From assembly GCA_034435015.1 (NCBI GenBank), contig DAOTYH010000062.1, forward strand, positions 1,219 to 65,218: a DNA stretch of 64,000 bases, written 5' to 3'. This DNA is from Anaerolineae bacterium. Its GTDB lineage: Bacteria > Chloroflexota > Anaerolineae > Aggregatilineales > UBA3940. Of the stretch, positions 298-31,478 are shown one piece after another; position 1 is the stretch's first letter; the number at the start of each line of letters is the position of its first letter. The position numbers were made by a program, and so were the translations under genes. Below the pieces are notes generated by a model. That model saw only the letters and a program-made list of their open reading frames with translations, made no database searches and was not told the origin of the DNA.

Positions 298-1167
298 ATG
301 GAGCAGATTATGGGATATGTAATCTATGATTGTGACAACACTCTCGGCTTGAAGAACAAAGAAGTTGATGACGGGTTGACCATTTACTACCTGCTGGGCA
401 GACCTGATATAGAGCTGATAGGGGTCACCACGACCTTTGGCAATGGGACAATCGAACAGGTCTATACACAGACGCAGGCCTTGCTGGCCGACATGGGGCG
501 GAACGACTTGCCTGTCAAGAAGGGAGCAGGCAGACGCGGTGAAGGCCCAACTGAGGCGGCTCACTTTCTGGCAGAAAGCGTTGCGGCACGCCCTGGCGAG
601 ATTTCCATTCTAGCCACAGGCCCGCTGGGGAATCTGCGTGCCGCCTGCGAGATAGACCCTGATTTCTTCCGCAAGGTAAAGCAAATTGCCTGCATGGGGG
701 GCTATCTAGCGCCCCTGCGGATGGGCTGGCGCCGGGTTAATGAGCTTAACCTCTCAGCCGACCCGGAAGCCTCCCATCTTGTGCTCAATGCGCCTTGCCC
801 CGTGACTCTGATGAATGCGCAAACTTGCCTGCAAGCCCCCTTCTACTGGCGTGACCTCAGGGAACTGAGCTTCTGGAGTCAGAAAACACGCCGAGCTGTG
901 CGGCGCTGGCTGATTCTGCATGCTATCTTCTGCGGGCTGCCCAACTTCTACCTTTGGGACCTGCTGCCTGCTGTCTATCTGTCTTACCCTGATCTGTTCG
1001 ATACAAACAGGGTCACAATACTCTCTTCCGTCCGCGACCTGGAGACAGGCAGTCTCATGATGGCTGAGCAACCCGGAGATAAGACGGTCAACATGCCTCG
1101 TTCCATTACCGACGTAAGCCGATTCAAGGCGATTCTGTTTGAGGCGTGGCAACATGTACGGGCCTGA
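298..1167 (+). CDS. nucleoside hydrolase family protein (IUNH-like)
   Basis: 289-aa ORF. The N-terminal VIYDCDNTLG...VDDGLTIYYLL resembles the Asp-rich IUNH signature (DxDxxxDD), but with an insertion between the Asp pairs. The GVTTTFGN block and the length fit the family. The start is ATG at 298 or 310. Confidence 0.65.
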   Translation: MEQIMGYVIYDCDNTLGLKNKEVDDGLTIYYLLGRPDIELIGVTTTFGNGTIEQVYTQTQALLADMGRNDLPVKKGAGRRGEGPTEAAHFLAESVAARPGEISILATGPLGNLRAACEIDPDFFRKVKQIACMGGYLAPLRMGWRRVNELNLSADPEASHLVLNAPCPVTLMNAQTCLQAPFYWRDLRELSFWSQKTRRAVRRWLILHAIFCGLPNFYLWDLLPAVYLSYPDLFDTNRVTILSSVRDLETGSLMMAEQPGDKTVNMPRSITDVSRFKAILFEAWQHVRA

Positions 1168-1185
1168 CTATGCCCGGTGATGACT

Positions 1186-1227
1186 AGTCCCTCTCCTGCT
1201 ACCGATGAGGGATGCGGGAGAGGGACT
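1186..1227. terminator. hairpin between convergent genes (11-bp stem AGTCCCTCTCC / GGAGAGGGACT)
   Basis: Perfect 11-bp inverted repeat (1186-1196 and 1217-1227) with a 20-nt loop. It sits in the gap between the + strand hydrolase gene and the last gene of the minus-strand operon. There is no clear U-tract. Confidence 0.4.
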
Positions 1228-1272
1228 CTAGCCATAGGCTATTCAACTCAATAGAGCAGAGAAACTATGCTC

Positions 1273-2343
1273 TTAAGGCCGAATGGGGTACCGGCCATAC
1301 TTCTCAGCGGCACGCACCATTGCATCAATATTTTCTACCGGCGTCCCGCCGCTTAGGCAACCTGAGGCGCTGAGGATGTAGCCGCCTCCCGGCGCCCCCT
1401 CTTGGATCATCCGGCGGCATTCTTCTTCGACATCTTCGGGCGTGCCGTTGAGCAGGGTGTCTAACTGGGCCATGTTGCCGATCAAGCACAGCTTATCACC
1501 AACCCGCTGTTTAGCCTCTGCGACGCTGATGTCCGGTGCGAAGTGCAGGCCGTCTATGCCCGTGTCGGGGTACATATCAAGGATATGCCCGACCCGGTCG
1601 CAGTTGTGAGCCAGCACGATGACGCCCTTAGGCATCCCTTCAACCAGCCGCTTGATATACTGCCCAGAAAACTCCCACCAGAGCTTAGGCGAAAGCTGGG
1701 CGCCGCTGTCATCAGAAAACATGATCTGCACCATCGTACCGCCAACCACTTCGTATTGCTTGTTGATGTAGCGGATACAGGTCTCTGTAATGATCTCCAT
1801 CATCGCGTGTACGCCTTCCGGGTCCGTGATGACCTCGGTCATCAGGTCAGTTGCCCCGCGTACCAATAGGGCTACGTCGAAAGGTGCATGCAGGAAACCC
1901 GCCGTGACCTCGTACCCATACTCCGGAAGCTTTTGGGCCAGCCAAGCGAAGTTTTCTAACACCATAGGCATACGGCCGTCTTTTTCAGGGTCGGGCACTT
2001 TGAGTTTCGGCACATCCCTGCGCAGATCATGAACAACAGGGTTGGCATGCGGCGTCTGACCCGGCAGGGTGACGATCTCGCACCCCAGCGCGGACGCCTC
2101 TACCGTTGATCCAGACGAGCCGCGGAAGCCGGGGAAATATTGCATATCGGGGTAGCGCTCGCCGTAGAACTCCACCATGGCGCGGAGTTGCATTTCGCGA
2201 TCCTCGTACCATTTGGAGGCATCTACACCGTAGTATTTGCTGAAGAAGGCGCTCGTCAGCCATGGGCAGGCCGGCACTCTATCTGGCTCGCCGCGCCGTG
2301 CTACCGTCAGGAAGCGCTCTCTTGGTGTCATCTCTTTGACCAT
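1273..2343 (-). CDS. uroporphyrinogen decarboxylase (URO-D / MtaA-CmuA) family protein
   Basis: ATG at 2343 is preceded by AAGGAG with a 7-nt spacer. The ORF-track GTG at 2379 would overlap the upstream gene. Sequence blocks (EPDRVPACPW, FPGFRGSSGSTVEASALGCEI, MFSDDSGAQLSP) and the roughly 356-aa length are typical of the URO-D fold. It is the last gene of the operon. Confidence 0.7.
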   Translation of the reverse strand: MVKEMTPRERFLTVARRGEPDRVPACPWLTSAFFSKYYGVDASKWYEDREMQLRAMVEFYGERYPDMQYFPGFRGSSGSTVEASALGCEIVTLPGQTPHANPVVHDLRRDVPKLKVPDPEKDGRMPMVLENFAWLAQKLPEYGYEVTAGFLHAPFDVALLVRGATDLMTEVITDPEGVHAMMEIITETCIRYINKQYEVVGGTMVQIMFSDDSGAQLSPKLWWEFSGQYIKRLVEGMPKGVIVLAHNCDRVGHILDMYPDTGIDGLHFAPDISVAEAKQRVGDKLCLIGNMAQLDTLLNGTPEDVEEECRRMIQEGAPGGGYILSASGCLSGGTPVENIDAMVRAAEKYGRYPIRP

Positions 2344-2371
2344 ATTGATCTCCTTATCAGCCGATGAGGGC

Positions 2372-3526
2372 TTATTCACCTAGACGCTCAACCATTGCCC
2401 GGAAGTGCCGGCTGCTCTCTACCAGATCGGGGCCATGCCGGTGGAGATTGCCTGCCACTAGAAAGACAGCATCCGGCCCGTAGAAGTCCCGCATCTCTTC
2501 AAAGAACTCCGGACGCACCCCGCCGCCCGGCGAGGGCAAGTTGGGCTTGATGTCCCCCATAGGCACACGTGTTCCTTCTGCCGCCAAGCGGCATTCCTCC
2601 TGAGGCGGCGCAAACCGCCCCTCGTAGTGGGGGAAGATGGAAATATCTGCTCCCATCAGCCGTGAGAGTTGTCCATGTAACACATAGGGTGAGATACCAA
2701 ACTCAGGAGTGCGCCGGTATGTACCCAGAAAACCCGGATGAAACATAATAGGCAGACCAACGGCGTCATCTTCAGCGAGCATGCGTATCATGTCCAGCCC
2801 GCTGAAGGCAGGCATCAGCATAAGGCCATCTGCACCCGCCTCTTTGGCAAAGCGAACCTTCGCCAAGAGTTTCTCCATTGGCCCGCTAATGCATGGAAAA
2901 TACAAGCAGTGGTAACCCGTCTGGTGATTGGCCCTGGCAATGGCTTCCACACAACGGACAACGCGCTCCTCAAACGGGCAGAAAGCCTGATCGGACAACC
3001 CATGGTCATCCTTGATGATGTCAATGCCTCCCAGTGCACACTGATAGGCCATCTCGGCAAGCTGTTGTGGAGACTGCCCCATCGGCTTGAGGGCAGTGCT
3101 GGTCAGAGGACGCGAAGAGACACCTAGAAGTTCACGAATGCCCTTCCGTCCAAAGCGCGGTCCCTTGAACGCCGCCGTTAGACTAGGCGGCAGGTCAAGA
3201 GACTCCAGTCGGACTCCCGGCGTGAAGCTGATGTTACCAAAAACCACGTTTAGGAACTGGGGCAACTCATAGCCTGTGCTCTCAGCGGCATAGGAGATCA
3301 AAACCTCGTAACTGCCGTCTGGGAGCGGCACGAAAGTCTCAATCCAGCCCACCAAGTTGTCACGTAACAGGCCGGGCGCAAGAAGCTCATAAGGGAACTC
3401 GACTGTCTGTTCCACACAGATAAACTCAGCGATTCGGCGTGCATCGGCCTCGTTTAACCCATGCAGGGTATAGCGCACCCGAAGACGTTCACCCGAAAAA
3501 GTAAGTTCAGGGTTATCGTACTGCAT
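2372..3526 (-). CDS. RuBisCO large-subunit-like protein (form IV RLP), not a carboxylase
   Basis: 384 aa. The block ALKPMGQSPQQLAEMAYQCALGGIDIIKDDH aligns by eye with the RbcL block [32 protein letters not shown]. The equivalents of K175 and K201 are kept, while K177 becomes M and E204 becomes H. MFHPGFLG aligns with HIHRAMHA. No small-subunit or PRK gene is nearby. Confidence 0.85.
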   Translation of the reverse strand: MQYDNPELTFSGERLRVRYTLHGLNEADARRIAEFICVEQTVEFPYELLAPGLLRDNLVGWIETFVPLPDGSYEVLISYAAESTGYELPQFLNVVFGNISFTPGVRLESLDLPPSLTAAFKGPRFGRKGIRELLGVSSRPLTSTALKPMGQSPQQLAEMAYQCALGGIDIIKDDHGLSDQAFCPFEERVVRCVEAIARANHQTGYHCLYFPCISGPMEKLLAKVRFAKEAGADGLMLMPAFSGLDMIRMLAEDDAVGLPIMFHPGFLGTYRRTPEFGISPYVLHGQLSRLMGADISIFPHYEGRFAPPQEECRLAAEGTRVPMGDIKPNLPSPGGGVRPEFFEEMRDFYGPDAVFLVAGNLHRHGPDLVESSRHFRAMVERLGE

Positions 3527-3605
3527 CCAATTGTCCTTTAGTCACACCTCGCTAAACCCGAAACCTCCAAGAGACTTGTTGCTTCGTTGAGAAGGGACGG
3601 CCCCC

Positions 3606-4844
3606 TCAGATGTCACTCTCTCCAGCAAAGCGGTTGAAGCGTGCGATCAGCCACTCACTGGTCTCACGTACCAGCGGGATACAGACACCATGCAAGTGAC
3701 GCTCTGTGCTGTATTGTTTCGCCTGCTCAGGGTCGCTTAGGTCAAGTTGAAGCAGATCACGGCAATTAGTGGTGCTCTTCTGAGCCTGATACCAGCGGAC
3801 CAGCTCAGCGGCCATAGCGCGCGCCGCATAGCGCGGCGGCTTGTATTGGGGGTTGCTGTGGGCTTCGCGTGCGCCAATAACCATCAGCCCCCCTATAAGG
3901 GAGCCGCAGGTCAGGCCCTGCCTTGCCATGCCGCCGATAAAGGAGGTTGCGGCACGGTGCGCAACCTCAGAGCTGTACCCCTCCGCCTCGGCAAAGGCGG
4001 TGAAGACAGACTCGGCACAGGAGTACCCCTGTCTGAAAAGCTCCTCTGCATAGGCAGGGATGTCAATCGGGGTGAAGGGTGCTTGCCCCTCACTTCCTGT
4101 GATCTTCAGGCAGGCTGATAATGACCCGCACAGGGCGTTGTCACGCTGGTCAAGGAGGGTGTGCGGCTTGAAATCTGGGGCGGATATGTGCTGACGCAAT
4201 GCGCCCGTCAGGGCTTCTGTCAGTATGGGGGTACAATCAAAACCGCGCACACCCAGTGCCAGCGCACGCTTCAGGTCCTCTTCCGGAAGAACAGCCGCCG
4301 TCCTCAGCAACAAGGGGGCAGACAGCCCCTCACACAGGGCGGCCAGACGATCAAACGGGACAGCGTCCCCCCACGACAGTAGCAGTGCATCCGGGCCGGC
4401 GCTTTCGACAAAGGCGCGGGCACGCACTGGATCAACCGCCTCTGCCTGACCCAGAAGGACGGCAACAGCCAAGCCGTTTTCACGGGCAAGCCTGCCAGAT
4501 TCCTGCACAAAGTCTGTCTCATGATTCTCGATCAGGCAGGCACAAAATCCCAGCCGGATCGCCTCACCCACCTGTTCGAGGTTTTGCACCCCTGCCAGCA
4601 TCAGGCAGATTGGCACGCGGGCCATACGCGCCTGTTCACGCAAGGCATCGGACAGACGGCGTACCTCGCCTGTAGAGATGCCTCTGAACCTGTCCGTACG
4701 CACAACCAGCACAAGCGGCGCTTCCTGCTTGCCAGCCTGTGTCATCAACGCTTGCGCGGCCAGCAGATCATCAACACTGGCCAGCACCAACCCGTAGGCC
4801 TTCTCCGTAGCGGCAGTAAGCAAAGCCGGCAGGGAACCTAGCAT
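3606..4844 (-). CDS. fusion protein: class-II aldolase-like (FBA/GatY fold, apparently zinc-less) N-domain + C_GCAxxG_C_C C-domain
   Basis: 412 aa. ATG at 4844 has GGAGG upstream, inside the end of the preceding gene. The N-terminal ~240 aa align by eye with GatY/KbaY (details in the findings). The C-terminal ~150 aa carry the C_GCAxxG_C_C pattern: GYSCAESVF, LTCGSLIGG, TNCRDLL, HGVCIPL. Confidence 0.6.
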   Translation of the reverse strand: MLGSLPALLTAATEKAYGLVLASVDDLLAAQALMTQAGKQEAPLVLVVRTDRFRGISTGEVRRLSDALREQARMARVPICLMLAGVQNLEQVGEAIRLGFCACLIENHETDFVQESGRLARENGLAVAVLLGQAEAVDPVRARAFVESAGPDALLLSWGDAVPFDRLAALCEGLSAPLLLRTAAVLPEEDLKRALALGVRGFDCTPILTEALTGALRQHISAPDFKPHTLLDQRDNALCGSLSACLKITGSEGQAPFTPIDIPAYAEELFRQGYSCAESVFTAFAEAEGYSSEVAHRAATSFIGGMARQGLTCGSLIGGLMVIGAREAHSNPQYKPPRYAARAMAAELVRWYQAQKSTTNCRDLLQLDLSDPEQAKQYSTERHLHGVCIPLVRETSEWLIARFNRFAGESDI

Positions 4845-4847
4845 GGC

Positions 4848-6284
4848 CTAAGCCTCCATCGGCCTGAGGTAAGGCCGGTAAATTTGCTTTCCGATAGGAC
4901 GCATCCCCAGCCAAGCCGCCAATTCCAACCCCGCCCCGCTGAGGTCGCCGTAAGCCAGCGGATAGTGATGCTGGTAACCGCTAGCCATTAAAGTCTCGAT
5001 CAAGTCTGGCACAGTGACAGCTTCGTCGTTCAAGCGCAGGTCACAGAACCAACCCCGGCTCCCTACGTAGCTGGACTTGCTGTTGTCCAGCCTGCCGCCC
5101 AGCACAAGAACGCGGTCAAAGTCTGTGGTGAACCCGAAGACGGTAGCCTGCCCCGGCTTCAGCACAAGATCGTTGTGCAGGCCAATGCCATCTCCGCCAT
5201 AGCCGTCAAAAAGCCAGAGAGACTGCATCCTGACGCCCTTCTCATCCGCCAATGAGGGAGCAGTCGGGCCGCAGTGCCAGAGCAGTATACTTTCGTCCGT
5301 CTCATCCACAGCGGAAAGGTCCATCAGGGTGACGACCGTACCGCCGCTCATGTAGCGCAAAGCCAGCATCCCGGCGGCGCTTGTGACATCCCCTTCGCAG
5401 GCGGCGATCAGGCCGTCTTCATTGAGCTGGCCCAGCACACTGCACACGGCTAGATGATAGTCTGACTGGAAACGCGGCCAGCAACTTATTGCCAACGCAT
5501 CGAGAGAACGCTCCTCAGCCAGTTGCCGATAGGTCAGCAGTACACGTCCCGCTCTATCTAATGCAGGAGCTTGTCCTTCGTCGAAGGTGGCGGCCCCTCC
5601 GCGGATACGTTCAGAAGCCTCCATTGCTGGTTCGCTAGGCTGGGCTTCAGCCCGCCCGATGACCTCATCAAATTCAATGTGAGCCACGCGGATACCCAGA
5701 CGCTCATAGAGCACACGCTCGTCAATAATGAGGTTGTCAAAGCCGGGAGCTACCCCGCCTACCAGCCCAATGCGTGCCCCTTGCAGATTGATGAGTGCCG
5801 TGAGCGCCTTCACCGTGAGTGCCAGCCGCTCATCAAAGAGCGGTTGACCGGGCCGCCCGTAAAACCACTTGACGGGCTTGCGATAGCCGCTCAGGAAGGT
5901 CTTGGCGATGCTGTTGTACATATTAGCGGCAGTGAAGCTGTTAAGCGGCAGGCCGCCTTTGGGCGCAGGCGGCCCTTCGGGCACAGCCCAGATACCCAGC
6001 CGGGCATCCAGCGTGGTGAACTCGTAGATGAACTCACCGGGGCCAAAGGAGCTGGTCTGTAGCAGGATGAAATCCGCCCCCCACTCCTTCAGCTCGGCGG
6101 CGGCGCGGCGTGCGTCTTCGATATTCCACATGCCGCCAGTGATCACATGCAGGTCAAAACCAAGATGTTCAGCGAGTGCGTTGAGCCGCTCGGCGCTGTC
6201 GGCAAACTGCGCCGCCTTGTCACCTAGAAAAGGTGTACACATCACGCCGGTCAGGCCTACCTTGAGCCGTCGAGTTTCGCGCAT
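4848..6284 (-). CDS. L-fucose/L-arabinose isomerase-like sugar isomerase family protein
   Basis: ATG at 6284 has GGAG 7 nt upstream. The ORF-track start at 6311 is TTG. The ~478-aa layout fits the family: an N-terminal Rossmann-like region (LKVGLTGVM...DFILLQTSSFG) and a C-terminal YQHHYPLAYGD block. It resembles COG2407-type FucI-like proteins. Confidence 0.6.
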   Translation of the reverse strand: MRETRRLKVGLTGVMCTPFLGDKAAQFADSAERLNALAEHLGFDLHVITGGMWNIEDARRAAAELKEWGADFILLQTSSFGPGEFIYEFTTLDARLGIWAVPEGPPAPKGGLPLNSFTAANMYNSIAKTFLSGYRKPVKWFYGRPGQPLFDERLALTVKALTALINLQGARIGLVGGVAPGFDNLIIDERVLYERLGIRVAHIEFDEVIGRAEAQPSEPAMEASERIRGGAATFDEGQAPALDRAGRVLLTYRQLAEERSLDALAISCWPRFQSDYHLAVCSVLGQLNEDGLIAACEGDVTSAAGMLALRYMSGGTVVTLMDLSAVDETDESILLWHCGPTAPSLADEKGVRMQSLWLFDGYGGDGIGLHNDLVLKPGQATVFGFTTDFDRVLVLGGRLDNSKSSYVGSRGWFCDLRLNDEAVTVPDLIETLMASGYQHHYPLAYGDLSGAGLELAAWLGMRPIGKQIYRPYLRPMEA

Positions 6285-6323
6285 AACACACTCCAAATGA
6301 CAACTAAGCAAACCGCTATAAGC

Positions 6324-7991
6324 TCAACCCACCGGCCAGCGGAAGTATGGCCCCTGCGCAGGCCAATCCCAGAAAGGCTGGCTGGCAGAGTCCAGCGCGT
6401 ACAGCGAGAGTGAAAAGCCAGCCATCTCCTGTGTGGTGAAGAAGGAGCCTACCACACTGCCGGCGACCTCCAGCCCATGTGCCCGCAAGGCATGATGGAC
6501 ACGCCTGTTGAGGATATGCAATTCCATCAGCGAAGTGCCGCCTGCACCATTCAGGAAGCTGAGTACACGTTTTTCCAACAGCGGGTTGAGGTCTTCCAGC
6601 AGTCGCTGAATAAGCATGTCAATCAGGGCGTCGGCATGCAGATGCGCCCCGCGATAGACCCCTGCCTCTCCATGCACGCCTGCCCCTACCTCAATCTGGC
6701 CGGGCGGCATCTCAAACATGGGTTGTCCAGAGACAGGATGGGTAGGCGGTCGTGCCGCCACCATCAGGGTAGCAGTACGTTCATTAGCGGCCCGCATCAG
6801 GGCGGCAACATCAGCCAGCGGAAGCCCCTGCTCAGCGGCGGCGCCTCCGATCTTGAGGCTGAAGAGTAATCCGCCCAACCCGCGCCGCTCCTCCAGACGG
6901 GAGCGGGGCGCGGTAGCAATATCGTCCCCTAGTAATACACCTTCGACTACAATACCTTCCTGGCTAGCCCTTCGAAGGGCCAGCCGGGCGTTAAGCACGT
7001 CCCCAGTATGGTTGGAGATCAACAGCACAACGCCCGCGCCGCGATCCGCTCGACGGATCGCCTCCGCAATGCGAACACCAGGGGCACAGGTGAAGATCGG
7101 GCCGTAAACATCGGCATCAAGCAGGCCCGGCCCAACAAACCCTCCCATCGAGGGGGTGTGACCGCCGCCGTGTCCGATGGCCAGCGCAGCCTTTCCGGCG
7201 GCCTTGGGCTGTGCCCTCACCAGGATGTCAGGAGGGACATAATGGAGCAGGGCCGGATAAGTAAGAGCCATGCCCTCTAATTCTTCAGCGATCAGGTTGG
7301 CAGGCTGGTTGATGAACTTACCGGGCGGCGGAAGTTGTTCTGCCTGTCCGGAAGGGAGGGAAGGGATCGCTGTGCCGACCGCTAGATCATGCAAGGTTTC
7401 AACAAGGATGGCCAGCGAAGTCGCACCTGCATCCTGATAGCCCGCTGAGCGCTCGCCAAGGAAGCGGGCGCGGCCATGCATGGCCGCCATCCCGCGTGTC
7501 AACTCAGCGCCTTGACGCGCCGCGATAGCCGCTACTGCCAGCGCACTGGCTGGCGGCTCCAGAGAGTGCTCTGCCAGAGCCTGCGCCGCCGGCGCCAAGG
7601 CGTCAACAAGCGTCTTCTGGCCGGGCTGGGCACCACCTATCTGTTGGACAGCCTCCAAGCCGCCCGCAAAAAAGGCGGCCAGATCAGCGCTGTTGAGTTG
7701 TTGTTTGCCGCGCAGTAGCACGCCGCCTTCTGCAAAGAAGGCCGCCAGCAGGGGGCCAATAGCCCCGCCTGCCGCAACAGCCAGCGCTTCTGAGGCTGTA
7801 TCAAGGAGGGCGCCTATATCAGCACAACCCGCCTGCACGGCCAGCTCGGCGGCCGCAAAGGCACGGCTGACTGTGTAGCCGTGATCGCCGTCCCCCACTT
7901 CCGCGTCAAGCGCATTGAGGGCGTCACGTTCTTGCTCGAAGCGTGCACGCAATAGCGAGAAGAAGCCCCTCAGTGCATCCAGATCAAGCAC
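6324..7991 (-). CDS. dihydroxyacetone-kinase-family ketose kinase, fused with permuted domain order (DhaL N-terminal, DhaK C-terminal)
   Basis: 555 aa. The N-terminal ~200 aa carry the DhaL signature LDAEVGDGDHGYT. The C-terminal ~330 aa carry DhaK blocks: ALAIGHGGGHTPSMGGFVGPGLLDADVYGPIFTCAP, LLISNHTGDVLNARLA, ERRGLGGLLFSLKIGGAAAE and GAGVHGEAG. The GTG start overlaps the upstream stop by 8 nt (GTGCTTGA). Confidence 0.8.
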   Translation of the reverse strand: MLDLDALRGFFSLLRARFEQERDALNALDAEVGDGDHGYTVSRAFAAAELAVQAGCADIGALLDTASEALAVAAGGAIGPLLAAFFAEGGVLLRGKQQLNSADLAAFFAGGLEAVQQIGGAQPGQKTLVDALAPAAQALAEHSLEPPASALAVAAIAARQGAELTRGMAAMHGRARFLGERSAGYQDAGATSLAILVETLHDLAVGTAIPSLPSGQAEQLPPPGKFINQPANLIAEELEGMALTYPALLHYVPPDILVRAQPKAAGKAALAIGHGGGHTPSMGGFVGPGLLDADVYGPIFTCAPGVRIAEAIRRADRGAGVVLLISNHTGDVLNARLALRRASQEGIVVEGVLLGDDIATAPRSRLEERRGLGGLLFSLKIGGAAAEQGLPLADVAALMRAANERTATLMVAARPPTHPVSGQPMFEMPPGQIEVGAGVHGEAGVYRGAHLHADALIDMLIQRLLEDLNPLLEKRVLSFLNGAGGTSLMELHILNRRVHHALRAHGLEVAGSVVGSFFTTQEMAGFSLSLYALDSASQPFWDWPAQGPYFRWPVG

Positions 7992-8844
7992 CGGCTACCT
8001 CCCGCCGGACAAAATCCGCACCGGCACGCGCCCCTGCATCCAGATCATCCCCAAGAGGACGCCAAATCGAGAGGGCCGGGCCGACCTCTTCGCCCGGCTG
8101 TACAAATGACTCAATGGTCAGCCAGCCACGGTAGCCCGCCGCATCGAGCGCCTCACGCACACTGGCCCATGGAATATGTCCCTGCCCCGGCATCTTGCGG
8201 TTGTTCTCCGAGCAATGGAAGTGGCCAATCTGATCACCCGCCAGCCGGATCGCTTTGCTGATGTCATCTTCTTCAATGTTCAAATGGAAAGTGTCGAGGT
8301 GTAATTTAATGGCGGGACTGTTCACTTCGGCCAACAGGGCTAGACCCTGTTCAACCGTGTTGATCAAATACCCTTCGAAGCGGTTGAGCACCTCAAGGCA
8401 AAGCGTCACGCCCAGACTGGCGGCGATCTGTCCAACCTCACGCAATGCCTTGATGCAACGTTTGCGGGCCTCAGCCTGCTCTGCGTAGGGCGGAAAGACA
8501 CCCCAAGCGGCGTACGTCACCCCGCCCAGCACGGGACTGCCGAGAGCCGCACATCCTTCCAGACAGGCCCGCAAATGGGCTGTACCTGCTGTGCGTATGC
8601 CGCTGTCGGGGCTGGTAATGTCGGTCGCGGGGCCAAGGCCAGTGCCGCAGGTGGCGTGCATTCCCTGTTCGTCCAATGCGGCCCGCAGACGCGGAAAATC
8701 CATTGTTGCCGGCGACAGCAAAGGAAACTCTGCCCCGTCAAAGCCGGCCTGCCGTGCCCGTGCGATCAACGGCACTAGATCGTCTGACCATTGCCGTTGC
8801 CAATAAGAAAGATGTATCCCAATTGGGCGGGGCATCGTCAGCAC
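7984..8844 (-). CDS. ketose 3-epimerase-like sugar-phosphate isomerase/epimerase (xylose-isomerase-like TIM barrel)
   Basis: 286 aa. It is collinear by eye with D-tagatose/D-psicose 3-epimerases: IGIHLSYW, LCLEVLNRFE, HLDTFHLNIEE, GHFHCSENNRKMPGQGHIPW, TIESF. These blocks hold the E/D/H/E metal-ligand positions. The start is GTG at 8844 or ATG at 8835. Confidence 0.75.
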   Translation of the reverse strand: MLTMPRPIGIHLSYWQRQWSDDLVPLIARARQAGFDGAEFPLLSPATMDFPRLRAALDEQGMHATCGTGLGPATDITSPDSGIRTAGTAHLRACLEGCAALGSPVLGGVTYAAWGVFPPYAEQAEARKRCIKALREVGQIAASLGVTLCLEVLNRFEGYLINTVEQGLALLAEVNSPAIKLHLDTFHLNIEEDDISKAIRLAGDQIGHFHCSENNRKMPGQGHIPWASVREALDAAGYRGWLTIESFVQPGEEVGPALSIWRPLGDDLDAGARAGADFVRREVAGA

Positions 8845-8852
8845 CTTTCAGG

Positions 8853-8890
8853 GAGGCCCTTCCTCCCCCACTGGCGCGAGGAAGGGCCTC
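8853..8890 (-). other. intra-operon RNA hairpin (13-bp perfect stem, 12-nt loop)
   Basis: GAGGCCCTTCCTC (8853-8865) and GAGGAAGGGCCTC (8878-8890) are exact reverse complements. They sit in the 63-nt gap between the EIIC stop and the epimerase start. No U-run follows on the transcribed strand. Confidence 0.55.
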
Positions 8891-8907
8891 AGGCTATTGT
8901 GGACGAG

Positions 8908-10194
8908 CTAGAAGCCGAGCAGTTTGGCAATCCCTCCTACCACAATGGCGATCAACGAGAAGTCGTTGCCGCCAAAGAGCTGGATGAAATTGCCCGCCGA
9001 GTTGGAGATGAGGGGGAGTGAGAACGCCTGCAGTACGATCAACAACACACCGCCAACAGCCGCCGCAATGATCGCTCCACGCCGCCCCCCTGTGGCGTTC
9101 GCTACCACTGCCGCCGGGCCAACATCAAAGAAGGCCGCAACAACCAGCGGGAACAGCACATAGCTGTAGCCTGCCAAGTTGAAGATCACGAGCGTGATCA
9201 GCGAGGTGATCATTGCGATTGGGAAGCCGATAGCCAGCGCGTTCTGGCCGTAAGGGAAGACCATCGGGCAGTCCAGAGCAGGCACAGCCTCTGGCACGAT
9301 AGCCTTGGCAATGCCATGGAAGGCCGGGATGATCTCAGCCAGCATCATGCGGACACCGGTCAGCAAGACGACCAGTGCGGCACCAAAGCTGATACCCTTG
9401 AAGAGCGTCCAGAACACCCAGATCCACACCTGCCCGCCGGTATAGGTGTCAGCCGCCCACTGCGGGCCGGCCAGCAGACCGAAGATCAAGTAGAGCAGGA
9501 ACATGATCAGCGAGGTTGTGATCACCATTTCCTTGAGGAAACCAAGCCCCTTGGGAACCTCAATATCCTCAGTAGACTTGTTGGGGTTGCCAAGCAGTTT
9601 GCCCAGCAGAGCACCGATCAACACATGGATGGTGGTGGTGTGGCCAATGCTGAACTGCCTGTCGCCCGTCAGCTTGAAGATGAAGGGGGCGATTATGGCC
9701 GGCAGGACGGTAGAGATGATGCCGAGGACGATACTGCCGACAATAACCAAAGGTACACCGGTGATGCGGCCGCCGTCCGCCAGCGCCGCCGCCACCATGA
9801 ACGCATTCCAGAACAGGATATGCCCTGTTAGGAAGACGTACTTGAGCGGCGTTACGCGGGCGAGGATCACATTCACCAAGAAGCCAAAGACCATGATCAG
9901 CACGACTTCAATGCCCCGCTCAGCTAGGAAGGCAGTGAAGTCGGCCACAGCGGCTGTTCCCCCGCCACTGCCTTGATAGACCTGTGCAAAATGCTCTGAG
10001 ATCGGCGTGATAGCCGCAACCAGCAGGTCTACTGCGGCAAAAAGGATGAGCACACCTGCCATCGTCTTGATCGTGCCGCTGATGACCTCATTGACCGGCT
10101 TGCGCTGGAACAGCAAGCCTAGCAGGGCTACAATGCCCAGCATAAAGGTCGGCAGGATGCGCGGGACAAGGGTGAAGATAATATTGATGTCCAT
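8908..10194 (-). CDS. PTS ascorbate-family EIIC permease (SgaT/UlaA-like)
   Basis: 428 aa and polytopic. ATG at 10194 follows AAAGGAGGA. The N-terminus (ILPTFMLGIVALLGLLFQRKP...ISGTIKTMAGVLILFAA) and overall hydropathy fit the UlaA/SgaT family. The cognate EIIB and EIIA are in the same operon. Confidence 0.75.
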   Translation of the reverse strand: MDINIIFTLVPRILPTFMLGIVALLGLLFQRKPVNEVISGTIKTMAGVLILFAAVDLLVAAITPISEHFAQVYQGSGGGTAAVADFTAFLAERGIEVVLIMVFGFLVNVILARVTPLKYVFLTGHILFWNAFMVAAALADGGRITGVPLVIVGSIVLGIISTVLPAIIAPFIFKLTGDRQFSIGHTTTIHVLIGALLGKLLGNPNKSTEDIEVPKGLGFLKEMVITTSLIMFLLYLIFGLLAGPQWAADTYTGGQVWIWVFWTLFKGISFGAALVVLLTGVRMMLAEIIPAFHGIAKAIVPEAVPALDCPMVFPYGQNALAIGFPIAMITSLITLVIFNLAGYSYVLFPLVVAAFFDVGPAAVVANATGGRRGAIIAAAVGGVLLIVLQAFSLPLISNSAGNFIQLFGGNDFSLIAIVVGGIAKLLGF

Positions 10195-10236
10195 AGCATT
10201 CCTCCTTTAGGGTTAGTACAGCAACTACGATGAGAA

Positions 10237-12411
10237 CTACTCACCCGCCTGCCAGAAAATGTCAACGACGAGGCTTGCCTCACTGCGGGGGGCACAGCGG
10301 ACAAGCAGGTTATCCCCCTCCAGAGACCAGTCTGCAGGCCCGCTCTGGCTGGGGAACATCTCTACCCGTTCTGGCATGCGGCCATTCCGTTGGATACACA
10401 GCACACAGCTTGTATCCTCTCTCAAATAGTTTGCAATCAGCAGAGTACTGCGGCCCGACCCTTCCAATAAATGGTGGTCGAGGGTACGCTCTCCCTGTTG
10501 CTGATAGCTGATGCAAACACGGGGCCGGATCGCAAGGCGCTCCAGCACAACGGCCAGCAGGCTTTTGAGCCAGGCCCCCTCCGGTTTCAGATAACCGGCG
10601 TCGGCTCTGGTGGCAATATACAGGCCTGCGCCTTTGCCGCGCTGAGCCAATGTGATAGCAGGCCACCCATCCGTAAAGCGGGCCAGCACCTCCGTATTTG
10701 GCTCAGGCTGGATTAGATCACGATGGAATGCGCCCTGCACTGCCTGCCCCTCCAGATCAAGGATCGGCGTGCCAAGTGCGTCAGGTTCGATCTGGGCCAG
10801 CCCGAAAGCTTCACGCAAGCCGGGGATCGGCAGATGATGATGATACCAGCCTGCTTCGGTCAGGGCGGCACAACGCGCAAAGGCAATCAGCAGACCCCCG
10901 CTCTCTACATAAGCCAGCAGTGCCGCCGCCTCCTCAAGGTTGAGGAGAGAAACCAGCGGCAGTACGATAACCCGGTAGAACTTGATCTCTGGAAGTTTCA
11001 GGTGGGGTGGAGTAATGAAGTCCACGCTGAAGCCCTGCTCCCAAAGGGCGCGGTAAGCACCACGCTGGGCGGCAAACAATATCTCTTCCTGACCGATACT
11101 GCTGAAGAAGATCGCATTAGGCTTCGATTCAAGCAGAGCAACCTCGCCTTGCGGCACATGTGCCGTGAGCAGATGCTCTTTGTTATGCTGGATATAGCGG
11201 CCCAACCCAGTTGCCGCTTCGAGGCGCGGCGTAGGTTGCCCGTCTAGATCAACCAGTGCGCCCCAGTGCAACGGCTGATAATCCCACTCACGCCATGGCA
11301 TGTAGAGCAGCATCTTGGCATCATGTCCCAGCGCCTCAAAGCCGTTGCGCCAGATGTCTGTTGGGCTGGTGTTGTATTCCGGCCCCAGTACCCAGCCGCC
11401 AATGGGGCCTGACTCAACTTCATGCAACCAGAAATCGCGTCCACCCCAACGGCTGACACTCCGCCCATGATCGAGGAAGATCGAGGTGTGTTCAGGGCGG
11501 GACACTATCTTGGCTCCACTGCCGGGGTAGAGATCATAGCCAATGTGATCTACCTGCTTAGCGATCTGCCACTGATCTAGGCCGGTAAGAGCGCCAAAAC
11601 GGTCATATCCTTTGAAGTTAAAGGTGTTGATCGAGGTTGGATGATCAGGATCATACTGGCGGATCAGATCATGCTGGCGGCGTGCAAACTCTGCAAAAGC
11701 CTCCTGCCAGAAGAGCCGCCAGTCCAGCCAGCGCGTCACGCCTGACCACGTGTCCGGTGTTGCTTCAGGAGGATCAACCTCCTCCCAATCATTATACCAG
11801 AAGGCTGTTGTACTCCACATCCAAGCGGCATTAAGCGCCTCAAGCGTGTGATATTTGGCCTGTACCCACTCACGAAAGCGTGCCTTGCTGTGATCGCAGT
11901 AACAGTAGATGTCAAGGCGGCCCTTCTCCCGCGTGGGGTTAAAGGGAAAGCCGATCTCGTTGCTGATCTGCCAGCCAAAGTGATTCTCATGTCTAACAGC
12001 AAATTGAGCCAGAGCCGCCAGATAGCGGTCACTAGCCTCTAGGAAGCCCGGATGATGGATGCAGGCCCAATGATAGGAGGCTGCCAGCGGATAACGCTCC
12101 CCCCGGCTGGACAGGATCACCGCATCAGGATACTTACGCGCCAGCCAGAGCGGCGGGCAGGAGGCGCCGGTGCTCAGCAACACATCCAGACCGAAGGCCC
12201 CGGCACGGCGGTAAAAGGAGTCGAGGACCTCCAAGCGAATGCGGCCCTCCTGCGGTTCGAGGCGATCCCACGAACCATGTACATCCCCAATGCGGATCAG
12301 GTTCATGCCTGCCGCCTGCATCTGCCGCAGGTCTTCCTCCCACTCCGACTCCGGGAAGATCAAAGGGGAGTAAGATGCACCGTAGCGCATCACCGCCCGT
12401 GAGCCTGACAT
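10237..12411 (-). CDS. glycoside hydrolase family 42 (beta-galactosidase-like)
   Basis: 724 aa. The GH42-type N-terminus reads YGASYSPLIF..WEEDLRQMQAAGMNLIRIG..SWDRLEPQEG. The acid/base motif is GWQISNEIG and the candidate nucleophile region is FWLHEVESGPIGGW. Trimerisation-domain-sized and C-terminal beta-domain-sized regions follow. Confidence 0.8.
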   Translation of the reverse strand: MSGSRAVMRYGASYSPLIFPESEWEEDLRQMQAAGMNLIRIGDVHGSWDRLEPQEGRIRLEVLDSFYRRAGAFGLDVLLSTGASCPPLWLARKYPDAVILSSRGERYPLAASYHWACIHHPGFLEASDRYLAALAQFAVRHENHFGWQISNEIGFPFNPTREKGRLDIYCYCDHSKARFREWVQAKYHTLEALNAAWMWSTTAFWYNDWEEVDPPEATPDTWSGVTRWLDWRLFWQEAFAEFARRQHDLIRQYDPDHPTSINTFNFKGYDRFGALTGLDQWQIAKQVDHIGYDLYPGSGAKIVSRPEHTSIFLDHGRSVSRWGGRDFWLHEVESGPIGGWVLGPEYNTSPTDIWRNGFEALGHDAKMLLYMPWREWDYQPLHWGALVDLDGQPTPRLEAATGLGRYIQHNKEHLLTAHVPQGEVALLESKPNAIFFSSIGQEEILFAAQRGAYRALWEQGFSVDFITPPHLKLPEIKFYRVIVLPLVSLLNLEEAAALLAYVESGGLLIAFARCAALTEAGWYHHHLPIPGLREAFGLAQIEPDALGTPILDLEGQAVQGAFHRDLIQPEPNTEVLARFTDGWPAITLAQRGKGAGLYIATRADAGYLKPEGAWLKSLLAVVLERLAIRPRVCISYQQQGERTLDHHLLEGSGRSTLLIANYLREDTSCVLCIQRNGRMPERVEMFPSQSGPADWSLEGDNLLVRCAPRSEASLVVDIFWQAGE

Positions 12412-12416
12412 AGAGA

Positions 12417-12704
12417 CTACTTCTTGCCTTCTAGCAGAGGACGAATGGCCGGCAGGACCTTCTCCACCACCTCGGTTTTACTGAGGAAGTTGTTGACGAC
12501 CACCACCGGCTGAGGGATGTCCTTAAACGCTGTAGAGAGGTCTTTTGAGGTGACTACAACATCGAAGCGCTCACCTTTAGCGGTAGTCATATCTGTGCAG
12601 AAGGTCTCAGCCTTAAGTCCGCTCTCCTTGAGGACTTCATCTATTTTGAGCTTCAAGATCATGCTTGACCCAAGGCCAAAGCCACATACAACCATGATGC
12701 GCAT
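12417..12704 (-). CDS. PTS EIIB component (ascorbate/lactose-type, SgaB-like)
   Basis: ATG at 12704 is preceded by AGGAGG with a 6-nt spacer. The ORF-track start at 12731 is TTG. MRIMVVCGFGLGSSMILK contains the phospho-Cys loop typical of PTS_IIB. Confidence 0.8.
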   Translation of the reverse strand: MRIMVVCGFGLGSSMILKLKIDEVLKESGLKAETFCTDMTTAKGERFDVVVTSKDLSTAFKDIPQPVVVVNNFLSKTEVVEKVLPAIRPLLEGKK

Positions 12705-12820
12705 CTGTATCCTCCTGATGGGATAGGCCAATAGCGCGGGAGGGGTCGAGAAGAAAGCCCTTTATTTTAAGGTGTACTGCCCCAACACAGCCAGGGGCTT
12801 GATGCTAGGGACAGGATGCC

Positions 12821-13279
12821 TCAGGAGTTAGCAATGTCAAACTGCTGGATGATGTCTACAACTTCTTTAACACTCTTAGCGGCACTCAGTTTCTGACGGG
12901 TAGTTTCTTCTCCAAGAAAGCCCGCCAGTTGAGTCAACATGCTAATATGGCTGGTCTTGTCTGGGTTACCGAAGGCAATCACCAGCGAGACAGGATCATT
13001 CTCTTGAGAGCCAAACTCGACTGGCTTCGCCAGCGTAACCAGTGATACACCCACGGCCAGCACACCATCCTCTGGACGCGCATGAGGCAATGCAAGACCA
13101 GGTGCCAGTACCATATAAGGCCCGACGCGGTAAACAGCATCTATCATAGCCTGAACATACCGAGGCTCACACTTGCCAGCCTTGACAAGCGGCTCTCCCG
13201 CCGCACGGATAGCCTCTTCCCAGTTCTTGGCGGGAACTTTTAGCCGGATCATATCCGGTGTCAGGGTTTCACTGAGCAT
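12821..13279 (-). CDS. PTS EIIA component (EIIA-2, mannitol/fructose/ascorbate type)
   Basis: 152 aa. PGLALPHARPEDGV matches the phospho-His loop of PTS_EIIA_2, and the size is typical of SgaA/UlaC. Confidence 0.8.
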   Translation of the reverse strand: MLSETLTPDMIRLKVPAKNWEEAIRAAGEPLVKAGKCEPRYVQAMIDAVYRVGPYMVLAPGLALPHARPEDGVLAVGVSLVTLAKPVEFGSQENDPVSLVIAFGNPDKTSHISMLTQLAGFLGEETTRQKLSAAKSVKEVVDIIQQFDIANS

Positions 13280-13288
13280 TTTCTTTCT

Positions 13289-14254
13289 TTAGTCCTCTTT
13301 CAGAAGTTTCAGTGCTGTCAGGGAGTCCGTGATCAGAGTATTGAGAAGCCTGCCGCGCATAGCGGCACGCAGTACTTCTACCTTTTCGGGGCCGCCTGCT
13401 ACCACCACACTGCGAGGCACATGCCGCAGGTCTTCAAGGCTGATGGCAATGGCCCGCTCGCAGATCGGATGCTGGATATACTCTCCCTGACTGTCAAAGA
13501 ATTGGCCTAGCATATCCCCCACTGCGCCACGCGCCCGCAGGTCCTCTAGATCATCATCATTCAAATAGCCGTGCAGGTAAAGCAGGGCCGACCGATCAAC
13601 CGGGCCAACGCTCTGCAGGACCATATCAGCCCGACGGGCTAGCTCCAGCGCCGCCGCGATGGGCGGCTCCCGCAGGAGAGCTTCGCGCATCTCCGGGCTG
13701 GAAACAATGGTCGGCGCATACAGGTAAGCCGCTTTGCTCTCGGTCAGCTCGGCTATACGCGAAGTAATGTTGTAATCGGTGAAGCCGCCAGTACTCCCTA
13801 CGCCTCCGGCAACCTCAACAAACTGACACCCGATTGTCTGCGGAGGGCCGAATACCTGTGGAATATAGGAAAGAGTGCGCCCCTGCCCAATCCCGACGAT
13901 CATATCTGGCCGCAGGTTGCTGGTCAGCCATAGAACGGCGCCCTGAGCCAGTGTGCGGTAAAGCGGCTCTCCCGGCTCAGCCTCAGTAACGACCAGCGCC
14001 TCCCTCAAACCGTATCTACGGCATAGCTCCTGCTCCAAGCCAAAGTGGATCGGCTCCGGCGTGTTAATCCTGATCTCTACAATACCCAACTCGCGGGCCT
14101 GTTGAAGCAGACGATTCACCTTAACGCGGGAGAGTTCAAGCAGGTCACCGATCTCCTGCTGAGTCAGGCCGTCAATGTAATACATCCAGGCCGCCTGAGC
14201 CAGCAGGCGGGTCAGCGCTGAATTGGGGGTGGTACGTGCCTGACTACGGATCAT
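13289..14254 (-). CDS. SorC/CggR/DeoR-type sugar-binding transcriptional regulator
   Basis: 321 aa. The N-terminal HTH reads LTQQEIGDLLELSRVKVNRLLQQARELGIVEI. A sugar-phosphate-binding domain follows (IVGIGQGRTL..., VVVAGGPEKVEVLRAAM). It is the first gene of the operon. Confidence 0.8.
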   Translation of the reverse strand: MIRSQARTTPNSALTRLLAQAAWMYYIDGLTQQEIGDLLELSRVKVNRLLQQARELGIVEIRINTPEPIHFGLEQELCRRYGLREALVVTEAEPGEPLYRTLAQGAVLWLTSNLRPDMIVGIGQGRTLSYIPQVFGPPQTIGCQFVEVAGGVGSTGGFTDYNITSRIAELTESKAAYLYAPTIVSSPEMREALLREPPIAAALELARRADMVLQSVGPVDRSALLYLHGYLNDDDLEDLRARGAVGDMLGQFFDSQGEYIQHPICERAIAISLEDLRHVPRSVVVAGGPEKVEVLRAAMRGRLLNTLITDSLTALKLLKED

Positions 14255-14383: not shown

Positions 14384-14413
14384 TTGACACCTACGCCAAC
14401 TTCTGCCATAACT
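14384..14413 (+). promoter_or_regulatory. sigma-70-like promoter for the M23 hydrolase gene (TTGACA-N18-ATAACT)
   Basis: TTGACA is at 14384-14389 and ATAACT at 14408-14413, about 45 nt upstream of the ATG at 14459. The ORF-track start at 14384 is the TTG of this -35 box. Confidence 0.4.
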
Positions 14414-14458
14414 GCACTGTGTCGTGTGGAAGGCCGTGAATTTGAAGGAGACAGGCGA

Positions 14459-16361: not shown

Positions 16362-17810
16362 CTAACCTTTGATCACTGCCAGCGGGATCAGCCGCGCTAC
16401 CTTGCGGGCAATACCTGCCCCGCTCACAACCTTGACCACCTCATCCACATCCTTATAGGCCTGAGGGGCCTCCTCAGCTAGGCCGGGCATGCTTCCTGCC
16501 CGTATAGTGATACCTTCCTTCTCTAACTCAGTGCGCAACGCCTCGCCGCGTATGGTGCGTTTGGCCTCGTTGCGGCTCATGACGCGCCCGGCACCGTGGC
16601 AGGTGCTTCCGAAAGTCTGCCTCATGCTCTCTTCTGTTCCCACCAGTACCCAACTGGCTGTACCCATTGAGCCGGGCACCAGAACAGGCTGACCGATGAT
16701 ACGGTACTCAGGCGGGAGTCCCTCAAAGCCGGGTCCAAAAGCACGTGTCGCGCCCTTGCGATGAACAACAACCTCGATGGTCTTTCCGTCAACCTGGTGT
16801 TTCTCAACTTTGGCCATGTTGTGGGCAATGTCATAGACCTGCCATAGACTCCAGTCGCGCACCTTGCCAGCCAGAACCGCTTCGAAACTGCGGCGGATAT
16901 GGAAGGCCAGCACCTGACGATTGGCAAAAGCATAGTTGGCGGCGGCACACATGGCGGCGTAGTAAGCCTGCCCCTCCGGTGAATGAAACGGAGCGCAAAT
17001 CAGCTCGCGGTCAGGGAGTTTAATGCCGTATTTCTGGCTCGCCGTTTGAAAGTCGCGTACATAGTCAGTACAAACCTGATGACCAAATCCCCGTGAGCCG
17101 CAGTGAATCTGGACGGCTATTCGACCCTTGTACAACCCCATTGCATTAGCGGCCTGCTCATCGTAGACCTCGTCAATCAAGTCCACTTCAATGAAGTGGT
17201 TTCCTGCGCCAAGTGTCCCTACCTGTTCGATTCCGCGCTCCCATGCCCGCTTGCTGACCTTGCCGCTGTCAGCGGCTTTCAGACAGCCGCCTTCTTCTGT
17301 CCGGGCAAGGTCCTCCGGCGTGGCATATCCCTTCTGAAGTGCCCATTTGGCCCCTTCATGCAACAGCTTCTCGAAGTCTTTATCTTTCAATTTGAGACTG
17401 CCCTCTTTACCGACACCGCTGGGGCAGTTCTGATATAACGTTGAAGCCAGCACAGACAGATGCGGACGTATCTCTTCTAGATCGATGTTGCTGGCAAGCA
17501 CGCGGACTCCACAGTTGATGTCAAACCCAACCCCGCCGGGCGAGATGATTCCACTGTCAGCCCGCGATGCTACCACGCCGCCAATCGGAAATCCATACCC
17601 TTGATGGATGTCAGGCATGGCCAGCGCATACTGTACCAGACCGGGAAGTGTGGCTGTGTTGACCAACTGATCAACCGATTGATCACCCAGAGCATCCTCT
17701 AATAACCGCTCGCTGGCATACAGCCGTGCTGGAACACGCATGTCATCCCGGAATGTGGCGGGAATCTCCCACAGATACTCGGACAGGCGATTGATGTCTT
17801 GCTTGCGCAT
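16362..17810 (-). CDS. rtcB: RNA-splicing ligase RtcB (3'-phosphate/5'-hydroxy RNA ligase)
   Basis: 482 aa with the hallmark blocks [36 protein letters not shown] and CHGAGR. Confidence 0.9.
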
Positions 17811-17835
17811 AGGCTTCTCTCCTCTACCTCACTAC

Positions 17836-18261: not shown

Positions 18262-18337
18262 AGCAATTCTCCAGTATCGGGAGATTTGGGAAATGATCAC
18301 CTATCTCTATTGAGTATACACAGAGTATACACAAGGT

Positions 18338-31252: not shown

Positions 31253-31478
31253 GGGTTTACTCCCCTGAAAAACCAACGTTTAGAAAAGTGAGGACAGAAC
31301 AAGTTTATCCCCTCAGATGGCTTAAGCCGGCTTATGGGGTAAACAACTTCAAATTGCTCCTGCATTTACTATACATCAAGAATCAGAGGAGAGATACATG
31401 ATCGCGGGCAGGAACAGATGCCCTTTTCCGCCTTCCAGACAGGGAAGCCCGTCAACAAGCTGAAGCAGAAGGCCCTCC

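Follow-up and report, generated by a model that had tools for sequence, protein, structure and literature searches.

A KDDH-type RuBisCO-like protein of an Anaerolineae bacterium falls within the DeepYkr/RLP1 superclade and adjoins a conserved MtaA-like gene

We analyzed a gene for a RuBisCO-like protein (RLP) located at 2372..3526 on the minus strand of a 64,000-nucleotide stretch of an Anaerolineae bacterium (contig DAOTYH010000062.1; this whole stretch is termed "the window"). The gene is an intact open reading frame (ORF) with an ATG start that encodes 384 amino acids (aa), and its product reads KDDH at the metal site, where spinach RuBisCO reads KDDE. We consider it probable that this ORF is a functional form IV RLP of the DeepYkr/RLP1 type, with KDDH as its normal metal-site signature and with the mechanism and pathway proposed below. 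That KDDH is the ordinary metal-site hallmark of the DeepYkr/RLP1 superclade is held with high confidence, as is the prediction, drawn from the sequence, that the window protein is a catalytically competent DeepYkr-type RLP. A preliminary description, based on an alignment by eye, had instead suggested that the His would alter the metal coordination sphere and could mark a distinct RLP subclass.

KDDH was found to be the rule among relatives of the window RLP. The motif is present in 120/120 of its closest homologues and, likewise, in 120/120 of the best homologues of a solved RLP from Rhodopseudomonas palustris (Protein Data Bank (PDB) 3QFW). In an alignment anchored to a hidden Markov model (HMM), the column corresponding to E204 (spinach RbcL numbering) holds His in all close (35/35) and mid-range (85/85) homologues, in 70/70 RLPs from GTDB genomes and in 120/120 3QFW relatives; among 93 representatives of 50%-identity clusters, it is His in 79, Gln in 11 and Asp in 3. 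A minority of these cluster representatives (P0134, P0145, P0153, P0154, P0183, P0211 and others) read KDDQ, KDDD or KEDH/KEDD, and fusion proteins of 500–785 aa with an RLP domain also occur among related cluster representatives. A scan of GTDB species-representative genomes with the pattern GGxDx[IV]KDD[HQ] recovered at least 589 stretches encoding relatives, and the best 80 of these at least 589 loci span Chloroflexota, Nitrospirota, Bacillota, Spirochaetota, Planctomycetota, Chromatiaceae and other groups.

Characterized proteins are among the bearers of the motif. The 3QFW sequence reads GGVDLIKDDH and matches P0270, a protein of R. palustris in our set, at 100% identity. A second R. palustris RLP group (P0312, 45 member sequences) carries the same GGVDLIKDDH and is followed by an overlapping Cupin_2 gene, and thus matches the published rlp1/cupin (RPA2169/RPA2170) arrangement. 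RLP1 (RPA2169) of R. palustris belongs to the DeepYkr clade, has the adjacent cupin RPA2170, and acts in vitro as a 5-(methylthio)ribulose-1-phosphate 1,3-isomerase with a kcat of 1.3 s-1 (PMC5893883); Rru_A1998 of Rhodospirillum rubrum, with its cupin Rru_A2000, fills the same role (PMC4958253). The products of the DeepYkr isomerization, 1-(methylthio)xylulose-5-phosphate and 1-(methylthio)ribulose-5-phosphate, belong to the methylthioadenosine (MTA)-isoprenoid shunt (PMC5893883, PMC4958253). By analogy with RLP1, a His at the E204 position need not preclude Mg2+-supported activity, because 10 mM MgCl2 was the sole divalent metal added in the RLP1 product-identification assay (PMC5893883), and nothing in the data calls for special metal chemistry. 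The preliminary description had itself named a finding that would tell against its proposal, namely that KDDH is common in an already characterized RLP clade, and this is what the survey returned (3QFW, RLP1). KDDH therefore stands as a strictly conserved marker, but the subclass that it marks is neither new nor uncharacterized.

Furthermore, the likeness extends over the whole active site. The window RLP and 120/120 RLP1/3QFW relatives keep the equivalents of E60, N123, K175, D198, K201, D203 and H294, and they also have in common His at position 204, Pro at 295, Ile or Val at 327 and Arg at 334. A neighbor-joining (NJ) tree with MtnW and spinach sequences as outgroups placed the window RLP inside the DeepYkr/RLP1 superclade.

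Residue equivalences were obtained by aligning spinach RbcL, whose reference sequence is identical at 475/475 positions to PDB 1ir1/8ruc, to a family HMM built from the window RLP and 97 homologues. The metal-site segment GGIDIIKDDH (residues 166–175; 3002..3031, minus strand, as for all motifs below) contains D169 for D198, K172 for the carbamylatable K201, D174 for D203 and H175 in the column of E204, and a HMMER alignment with MtnW 2oek also pairs KDDH with KDDE, so that the register is unshifted. The segment ALKPMGQS (residues 145–152; 3071..3094) supplies K147 for K175, with A145 for T173. The retention of K175, K201 and D203 and the replacement of E204 by His, both read by eye in the preliminary description, were thus borne out by the profile alignment, with no shift to KDDE. 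Its reading of K177 as Met held in part: the loop is one residue shorter, and the position is either deleted (HMM alignment) or Met149 (alignment to MtnW), the gap placement being ambiguous and Lys absent either way.

The remaining motifs follow the same register. N98 in VVFGNISF (3224..3247) and E39 in CVEQTVEFP (3392..3418) are the kept equivalents of N123 and E60, the latter followed by F44/P45 in place of T65/W66. The regions that read HIHRAMHA and GGDHIHAGT in RbcL had been matched by eye to MFHPGFLG and GADISIFPH, and both matches hold: MFHPGFLG (residues 261–268; 2723..2746) keeps a single His (H263 for H294), with P264 replacing R295 and L267 replacing H298, and GADISIFPH (residues 292–300; 2627..2653) has I297 in place of H327. 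The longer segment GADISIFPHYEGRF (2612..2653) contains, in addition to I297, R304 in place of K334 (loop 6) and H300, which is typical of the sub-branch described below and is also present in R. palustris RLP1. At the P1 phosphate site, G334/G335/G336 of PSPGGGV (2516..2536) correspond to S379/G380/G381, and A358/G359 of LVAGNL (2444..2461) to G403/G404, so that the glycines G380/G381 and G404 are kept, S379 is replaced by Gly and G403 by Ala. The equivalents of K177, E204, R295, H298, H327, K334 and S379 are all absent, which sustains the earlier statement that several carboxylase residues are missing and led us to reject a carboxylating RuBisCO (forms I–III).

Fold comparisons agree with this placement. 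The Pfam RuBisCO_large model scores the window RLP at 83.8 bits (cut-off 30.1), far above chance, and the top solved structure in a search of PDB sequences is 3QFW (E 9.9e-72; 245 bits), ahead of MtnW (162 bits), the Photo RLPs (140 bits) and form III RuBisCO (at most 135 bits). An AlphaFold2 model computed from a 48-sequence alignment reached a mean predicted local distance difference test score (pLDDT) of 96.2 and a predicted template modeling score (pTM) of 0.94. Searched against the PDB with Foldseek, this model returned 3qfw_B as its top match (target-normalized template modeling (TM) score 0.95, root-mean-square deviation 1.7 Å), with MtnW structures ranking behind at target-normalized TM scores of 0.82–0.87.

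We infer a reaction from the position of the window RLP in its family, its conserved set of catalytic residues and its conserved gene neighborhood. With moderate confidence, and by analogy with RLP1, the protein would carry out a metal-dependent enediolate 1,3-isomerization of a ketose 1-phosphate with an uncharged tail. Lys172 would be carbamylated, as elsewhere in the family, and would hold a divalent metal together with Asp174 and His175; the metal would bind the C2 carbonyl and C3 hydroxyl of the ketose 1-phosphate, whose phosphate would sit in the glycine-rich P1 site (G335/G336, A358/G359). With R295 replaced by Pro, H298 by Leu and H327 by Ile, RuBisCO's second phosphate site is lost, and the substrate therefore probably carries no charge at its distal end. 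Through enediolate intermediates, the carbonyl would shift two carbons along the chain. A 5-modified ribulose-1-phosphate (methylthio or deoxy) is favored as the substrate, this being the least certain element of the scheme, and it would probably derive from a 5-modified ribose released from nucleoside by-products (e.g. 5-methylthioribose or 5-deoxyribose). An isomerase (aldose to ketose) and a Dak-type kinase (ketose to ketose-1-phosphate) would make this substrate, replacing MtnK and MtnA, and the RLP product would pass to an MtaA-like zinc methyltransferase whose gene stands in the position of that of the cupin methylsulfurylase.

The new element here is not KDDH, which was already known, but the conserved and undescribed neighborhood of the sub-branch to which the window RLP belongs. 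This sub-branch comprises nine loci (the window, L001, L002, L003, L087, L088, L090, L091 and L115) whose RLPs share at least 61% identity with the query; it is monophyletic in the NJ tree and nested among RLPs linked to MtnA, MtnK, transketolase or cupin genes. In 9/9 loci the RLP gene is followed by an MtaA-like gene of the URO-D family, and orthologues of a Dak2-Dak1 kinase and of a 474–487-aa isomerase are linked to it in all eight loci with upstream flank. A class II aldolase is linked in every locus with upstream flank except L003, whose flank ends first, and an AP_endonuc_2 TIM barrel in every such locus but L090. The module is co-directional, as a single array, in the window, L001 and L002, and divergently transcribed in L003, L087, L088, L090 and L091. 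Of these loci, only the window, L001, L002 and L003 also carry genes for phosphotransferase system (PTS) components EIIA, EIIB and EIIC, for a glycoside hydrolase of family 42 (GH42) and for a SorC regulator beside the module. In L087 and L115 the MtaA-like gene is followed by an MTA-phosphorylase-like one, which scores highest with the NCBIfam model MTAP (107 bits, under the cut-off) and takes the place that the nucleoside hydrolase gene has in the window. Within the RLP itself, the sub-branch has fixed residues that set it apart from its relatives at five positions (D233, G265, T269, H300 and A358), four of them in active-site loops; G265 stands where relatives have Ala, and A358, fixed in 35/35, where relatives have Gly.

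The partner gene of the window (1273..2343, minus strand), directly downstream of the RLP gene, encodes a predicted zinc methyltransferase of URO-D fold that is MtaA/CmuA-like by NCBIfam but below every cut-off. Translation likely starts at ATG 2343, which is preceded by AAGGAG 7 nt upstream and gives 356 aa, compared with 349–356 aa in homologues; a GTG start at 2379, which would create an 8-nt overlap between the RLP and URO-D genes, is probably not real, as ATG 2343 fits the homologue lengths. Among PDB entries the protein comes closest to MtaA (4AY7, E 1.1e-18), to which its His-x-Cys and distal Cys align, and this HxC...C is kept in 7/7 full-length RLP-adjacent orthologues, the eighth (L091) being cut off before the motif. 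In MT2-type methyltransferases, HxC...C forms the Zn-thiolate site. The MtaA-like proteins make up a tight family, with approximately 55 clusters at 50% identity or more, after which scores fall sharply. URO-D neighbors of the distant RLPs L058, L064 and L124 were considered and set aside as unrelated paralogues (50–57 bits), HxC being present in two of them and the second Cys in none. In our literature search, which left key subscription papers outside its scope, no RLP paired with an MtaA-like methyltransferase was found described.

No corrinoid protein is encoded in the window. In other contigs, orthologues of the MtaA-like protein at 53–57% identity adjoin corrinoid-binding proteins. One such locus (L171, 7296-10535) has the order corrinoid protein, URO-D, orthologue of the window isomerase, and another (L170, 7558-17068) the order B12-binding_2 protein, URO-D, MtnA-like gene and a SorC-EIIA-EIIB-GH42-EIIC array; in a Pelolinea locus (L067, 4592-11520) the order is corrinoid protein-HAD-EIIC-EIIA-glyoxalase-like-RLP-cupin. 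These arrangements hint that corrinoid-dependent methyl transfer may be tied to the window-type sugar system.

Beyond the sub-branch, neighbors within 6 kb of the RLP gene were clustered for the best 80 of the at least 589 GTDB loci. Transketolase (TK), fused or split, adjoins the RLP gene in 42/80, always on the same strand and immediately upstream (examples include L004 at 8041-11143, L026, L027, L050, L056 and L079). Other neighbors were MtnA-like (eIF-2B family, 13/80), MtnK-like (9/80) and cupin (7/80) genes and, more rarely, those for O-acetylhomoserine-sulfhydrylase-like (OAHS; 4/80) and class II aldolase/adducin (4/80) proteins. When metagenome loci were added, the 158 loci with RLPs below 55% identity to that of the window gave TK at 85, MtnA at 23, MtnK at 17, OAHS at 15 and cupin at 13. 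TK is often part of arrays of the form ABC transporter-MtnK-MtnA-TK-TK-RLP that lack a cupin, as at several loci, e.g. in Chloroflexus sp. MS-G (L079), and the cupin HMM built from superclade loci also recognizes the R. palustris cupin (L086_cupin). Through its linkage to MtnA, MtnK, TK, OAHS and cupin genes, the whole superclade is tied to the salvage of 5-methylthioribose and MTA, and in the wider KDDH superclade the prevalence of TK suggests that what becomes of the RLP product depends on transketolase. The literature search, with the same scope, returned no account of an RLP-transketolase linkage, and nothing on function for RLPs in connection with transketolase, 5-deoxyribose or 3QFW. A further arrangement, PTS EIIA-EIIB-EIIC(GAT)-RLP-cupin, was seen in L005 (2061-7235, Propionispora sp. 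2/2-37, where OAHS-like genes accompany it), L089 (7246-11706), L020 and L067, and suggests that PTS uptake feeds an RLP/cupin route in these clusters.

Several observations weigh against a methionine-salvage-like function of a DeepYkr-type RLP in the window. The window RLP and R. palustris RLP1 share only 38% identity, and the NJ tree is approximate and was built without reference sequences of other named RLP clades. In the 64-kb window, HMMs of the superclade neighbors returned no match to MtnA, MtnK, cupin, transketolase or class II aldolase/adducin, and the PTS, GH42 and SorC regulator give the operon the look of one for sugar utilization. The five positions fixed in the sub-branch, four of them in active-site loops, could reflect a changed substrate. 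Finally, the functional assignment draws on sequence, predicted fold and gene context.

Much of this evidence can be arranged differently, with the fold and the enediolate chemistry unchanged but put to use in ordinary sugar catabolism. A sugar taken up through the PTS or set free by GH42 would then be the starting material for the isomerase and Dak kinase, and the RLP would isomerize a non-sulfur ketose 1-phosphate to a pentose-phosphate intermediate (e.g. pentulose-1-phosphate to xylulose-5-phosphate, or hexulose-1-phosphate to 3-hexulose-6-phosphate). In accordance with such a route, the RLP gene is co-directional with those for PTS EIIA/B/C, GH42, the epimerase-like barrel, the Dak kinase and the isomerase under a SorC regulator, with synteny in L001 and L002; the aldolase-like domain has lost its Asp-His motif and later His residues, so that a ketose-1-phosphate would have to leave by a different route; active-site loops of the sub-branch carry substitutions of their own; and methionine-salvage genes are absent from the window. 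However, the PTS and GH42 genes are missing from L087, L088, L090 and L091 and are hence accessory, whereas a plain sugar route leaves unexplained why the partner conserved in 9/9 loci should be MtaA-like and carry a Zn motif for thiol binding. MTA-phosphorylase-like or nucleoside hydrolase genes also flank the RLP/MtaA-like pair, and the sub-branch is nested among MtnA-, MtnK- and cupin-linked RLPs. We therefore regard ordinary sugar catabolism as rather unlikely. A bolder reading is that the RLP and MtaA-like module encodes a hitherto undescribed anaerobic pathway acting on 5-methylthioribose, on 5-deoxyribose or on some other modified sugar, in which isomerase and Dak kinase stand in for MtnK and MtnA and a corrinoid-type thiol methyltransferase stands in for the cupin, demethylating or desulfurizing the RLP product; we put this forward tentatively, as a possibility that we doubt more than we believe.

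The two other explanations concern the protein itself. A new RLP subclass using a different metal (Fe2+, Mn2+ or Zn2+) for new chemistry would be in keeping with His being a softer ligand than Glu, with the strict conservation of the substitution, and with Gln or Asp in a minority of cluster representatives, which points to clade-specific selection at the E204 position. The subclass is nevertheless not new, as it includes 3QFW and the characterized RLP1 isomerase, and the RLP1 product was formed with MgCl2 as the sole added divalent metal (PMC5893883), which makes this explanation very improbable. A bona fide carboxylating RuBisCO (form II/III-like), an MtnW enolase or an OiaX decarboxylase could be read into the weak matches of the window RLP to the corresponding NCBIfam models, but every score is far under the curated cut-off: 216.5 versus 409 and 176.7 versus 513.6 for MtnW, from which the protein is also separated by KDDH in place of KDDE; 147.7 versus 497 bits for form III; 49.1 versus 489 bits for form II; and 74.1 versus 700 bits for the OiaX/OiaT apiose-pathway RLPs, where the match is confined to residues 74–223. 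With the carboxylase residues absent as well, these identities are refuted by residues and scores and retain next to no credibility.

The remaining genes of the window operon, all on the minus strand, lie upstream of the RLP gene. The nearest (3606..4844) encodes a class II aldolase-like protein fused to a C_GCAxxG_C_C domain. Compared with an intact standalone orthologue in L087 (4991-5851; 219.8 bits versus 215.6 for the ketose-bisphosphate aldolase subfamily model), its Asp-His motif is lost (LDH reads LAG) and both later His are gone, and the aldolase outlet is probably dead in the window/L001/L002 lineage. The putative aldose-ketose isomerase (4848..6311) shows distant similarity to sulfoquinovose isomerase SftI and had no Pfam match and no PDB sequence match. 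Next come the dihydroxyacetone-kinase-family kinase (6324..7991), a fusion in the order Dak2-Dak1 that the sub-branch loci share (in L087, stand-alone Dak1 and Dak2 genes lie close by as well), and a xylose-isomerase-like TIM barrel resembling ketose 3-epimerases (7984..8844; 250.5 bits with the D-psicose 3-epimerase model, cut-off 300). The array continues with PTS EIIC of the ascorbate (UlaA/SgaT) type (8908..10194), GH42 (10237..12411), EIIB (12417..12731) and EIIA (12821..13279), and its first gene encodes a SorC-family sugar-binding regulator (13289..14254). The placement of a cytoplasmic-type GH42 between EIIB and EIIC of an ascorbate-family PTS is an odd pairing, since a PTS delivers phosphorylated products; L001, L002, L003 and L170 have the array too. 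Convergent with the operon end lies a gene of the inosine-uridine nucleoside hydrolase family (298..1167, plus strand), also found in L001.

No terminator-like site was found in the aldolase-RLP gap (3527-3605) or between the RLP and MtaA-like genes, a sigma-70 promoter scan of 1000-5000 gave no site, and Rfam had no match in the window. HMMs made from relatives' neighbors gave no match in the 64-kb window to HAD, zinc alcohol dehydrogenase (Zn-ADH) or the Propionispora-type EIIC, so that the window PTS has a different EIIC subfamily from the RLP-cupin-linked one; the only OAHS-like match was weak (30065-31279, 22.8 bits). Elsewhere in the window, 14384-16267 (plus strand) encodes an M23 peptidase that bears a Golvesin_C domain, and adjoining RtcB RNA ligase and archease genes lie at 16362-18300 (minus strand), downstream of the operon region.

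To our knowledge, few RLP reactions are known. The KDDH of the window RLP is now explained and ordinary, within a superclade that already has a crystal structure and a demonstrated methionine-salvage function, so that no more effort need go into a supposed new metal site. Attention shifts to the partners: most superclade members are linked to transketolase and not to the cupin of the published pathway, and the window sub-branch has swapped partners again, for an MtaA-like methyltransferase, a Dak kinase and an isomerase. Should these exchanges correspond to new substrates, or to a novel means of taking off the methylthio group, both the RuBisCO superfamily and the anaerobic recycling of S-adenosylmethionine by-products would gain new reactions.

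Among known systems, the window RLP shares with RuBisCO forms I–III (spinach 8RUC) an N-terminal domain and TIM barrel; it is approximately 90 residues shorter, and carboxylation is not expected. MtnW/YkrW (Geobacillus kaustophilus 2OEK, Bacillus subtilis 2ZVI), the 2,3-diketo-5-methylthiopentyl-1-phosphate enolase of methionine salvage, has the same fold, keeps the Lys and Asp and has lost the second phosphate site, but it carries KDDE and performs a single enolization. The MtaA-like partner has the URO-D-like barrel and HxC...C of MtaA (4AY7, methylcobalamin:coenzyme M methyltransferase); unlike MtaA, it is bacterial and adjoins an RLP, with no corrinoid protein in the window. The closest counterparts are the DeepYkr proteins (R. 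rubrum Rru_A1998, R. palustris RLP1), which share with the window RLP the fold (3QFW), a length of approximately 365–385 aa, KDDH, the whole active-site pattern and the superclade, with many intermediate relatives linked to MtnA, MtnK, cupin and OAHS genes. The window RLP differs from R. palustris proteins in a loop after the HP motif that is six residues longer, and its sub-branch differs from DeepYkr relatives in the fixed G265, T269, H300 and A358. Unlike DeepYkr members, it has no cupin, MtnA or MtnP nearby; the gene set of the MTA-isoprenoid shunt (an RLP paired with the cupin 1-(methylthio)xylulose-5-phosphate methylsulfurylase, MtnP/MtnA and OAHS) was not found in the 64-kb window, where an MtaA-like gene occupies the cupin position and the partners are an MtaA-like Zn methyltransferase, an isomerase, a Dak kinase and epimerase-like and aldolase-like proteins.

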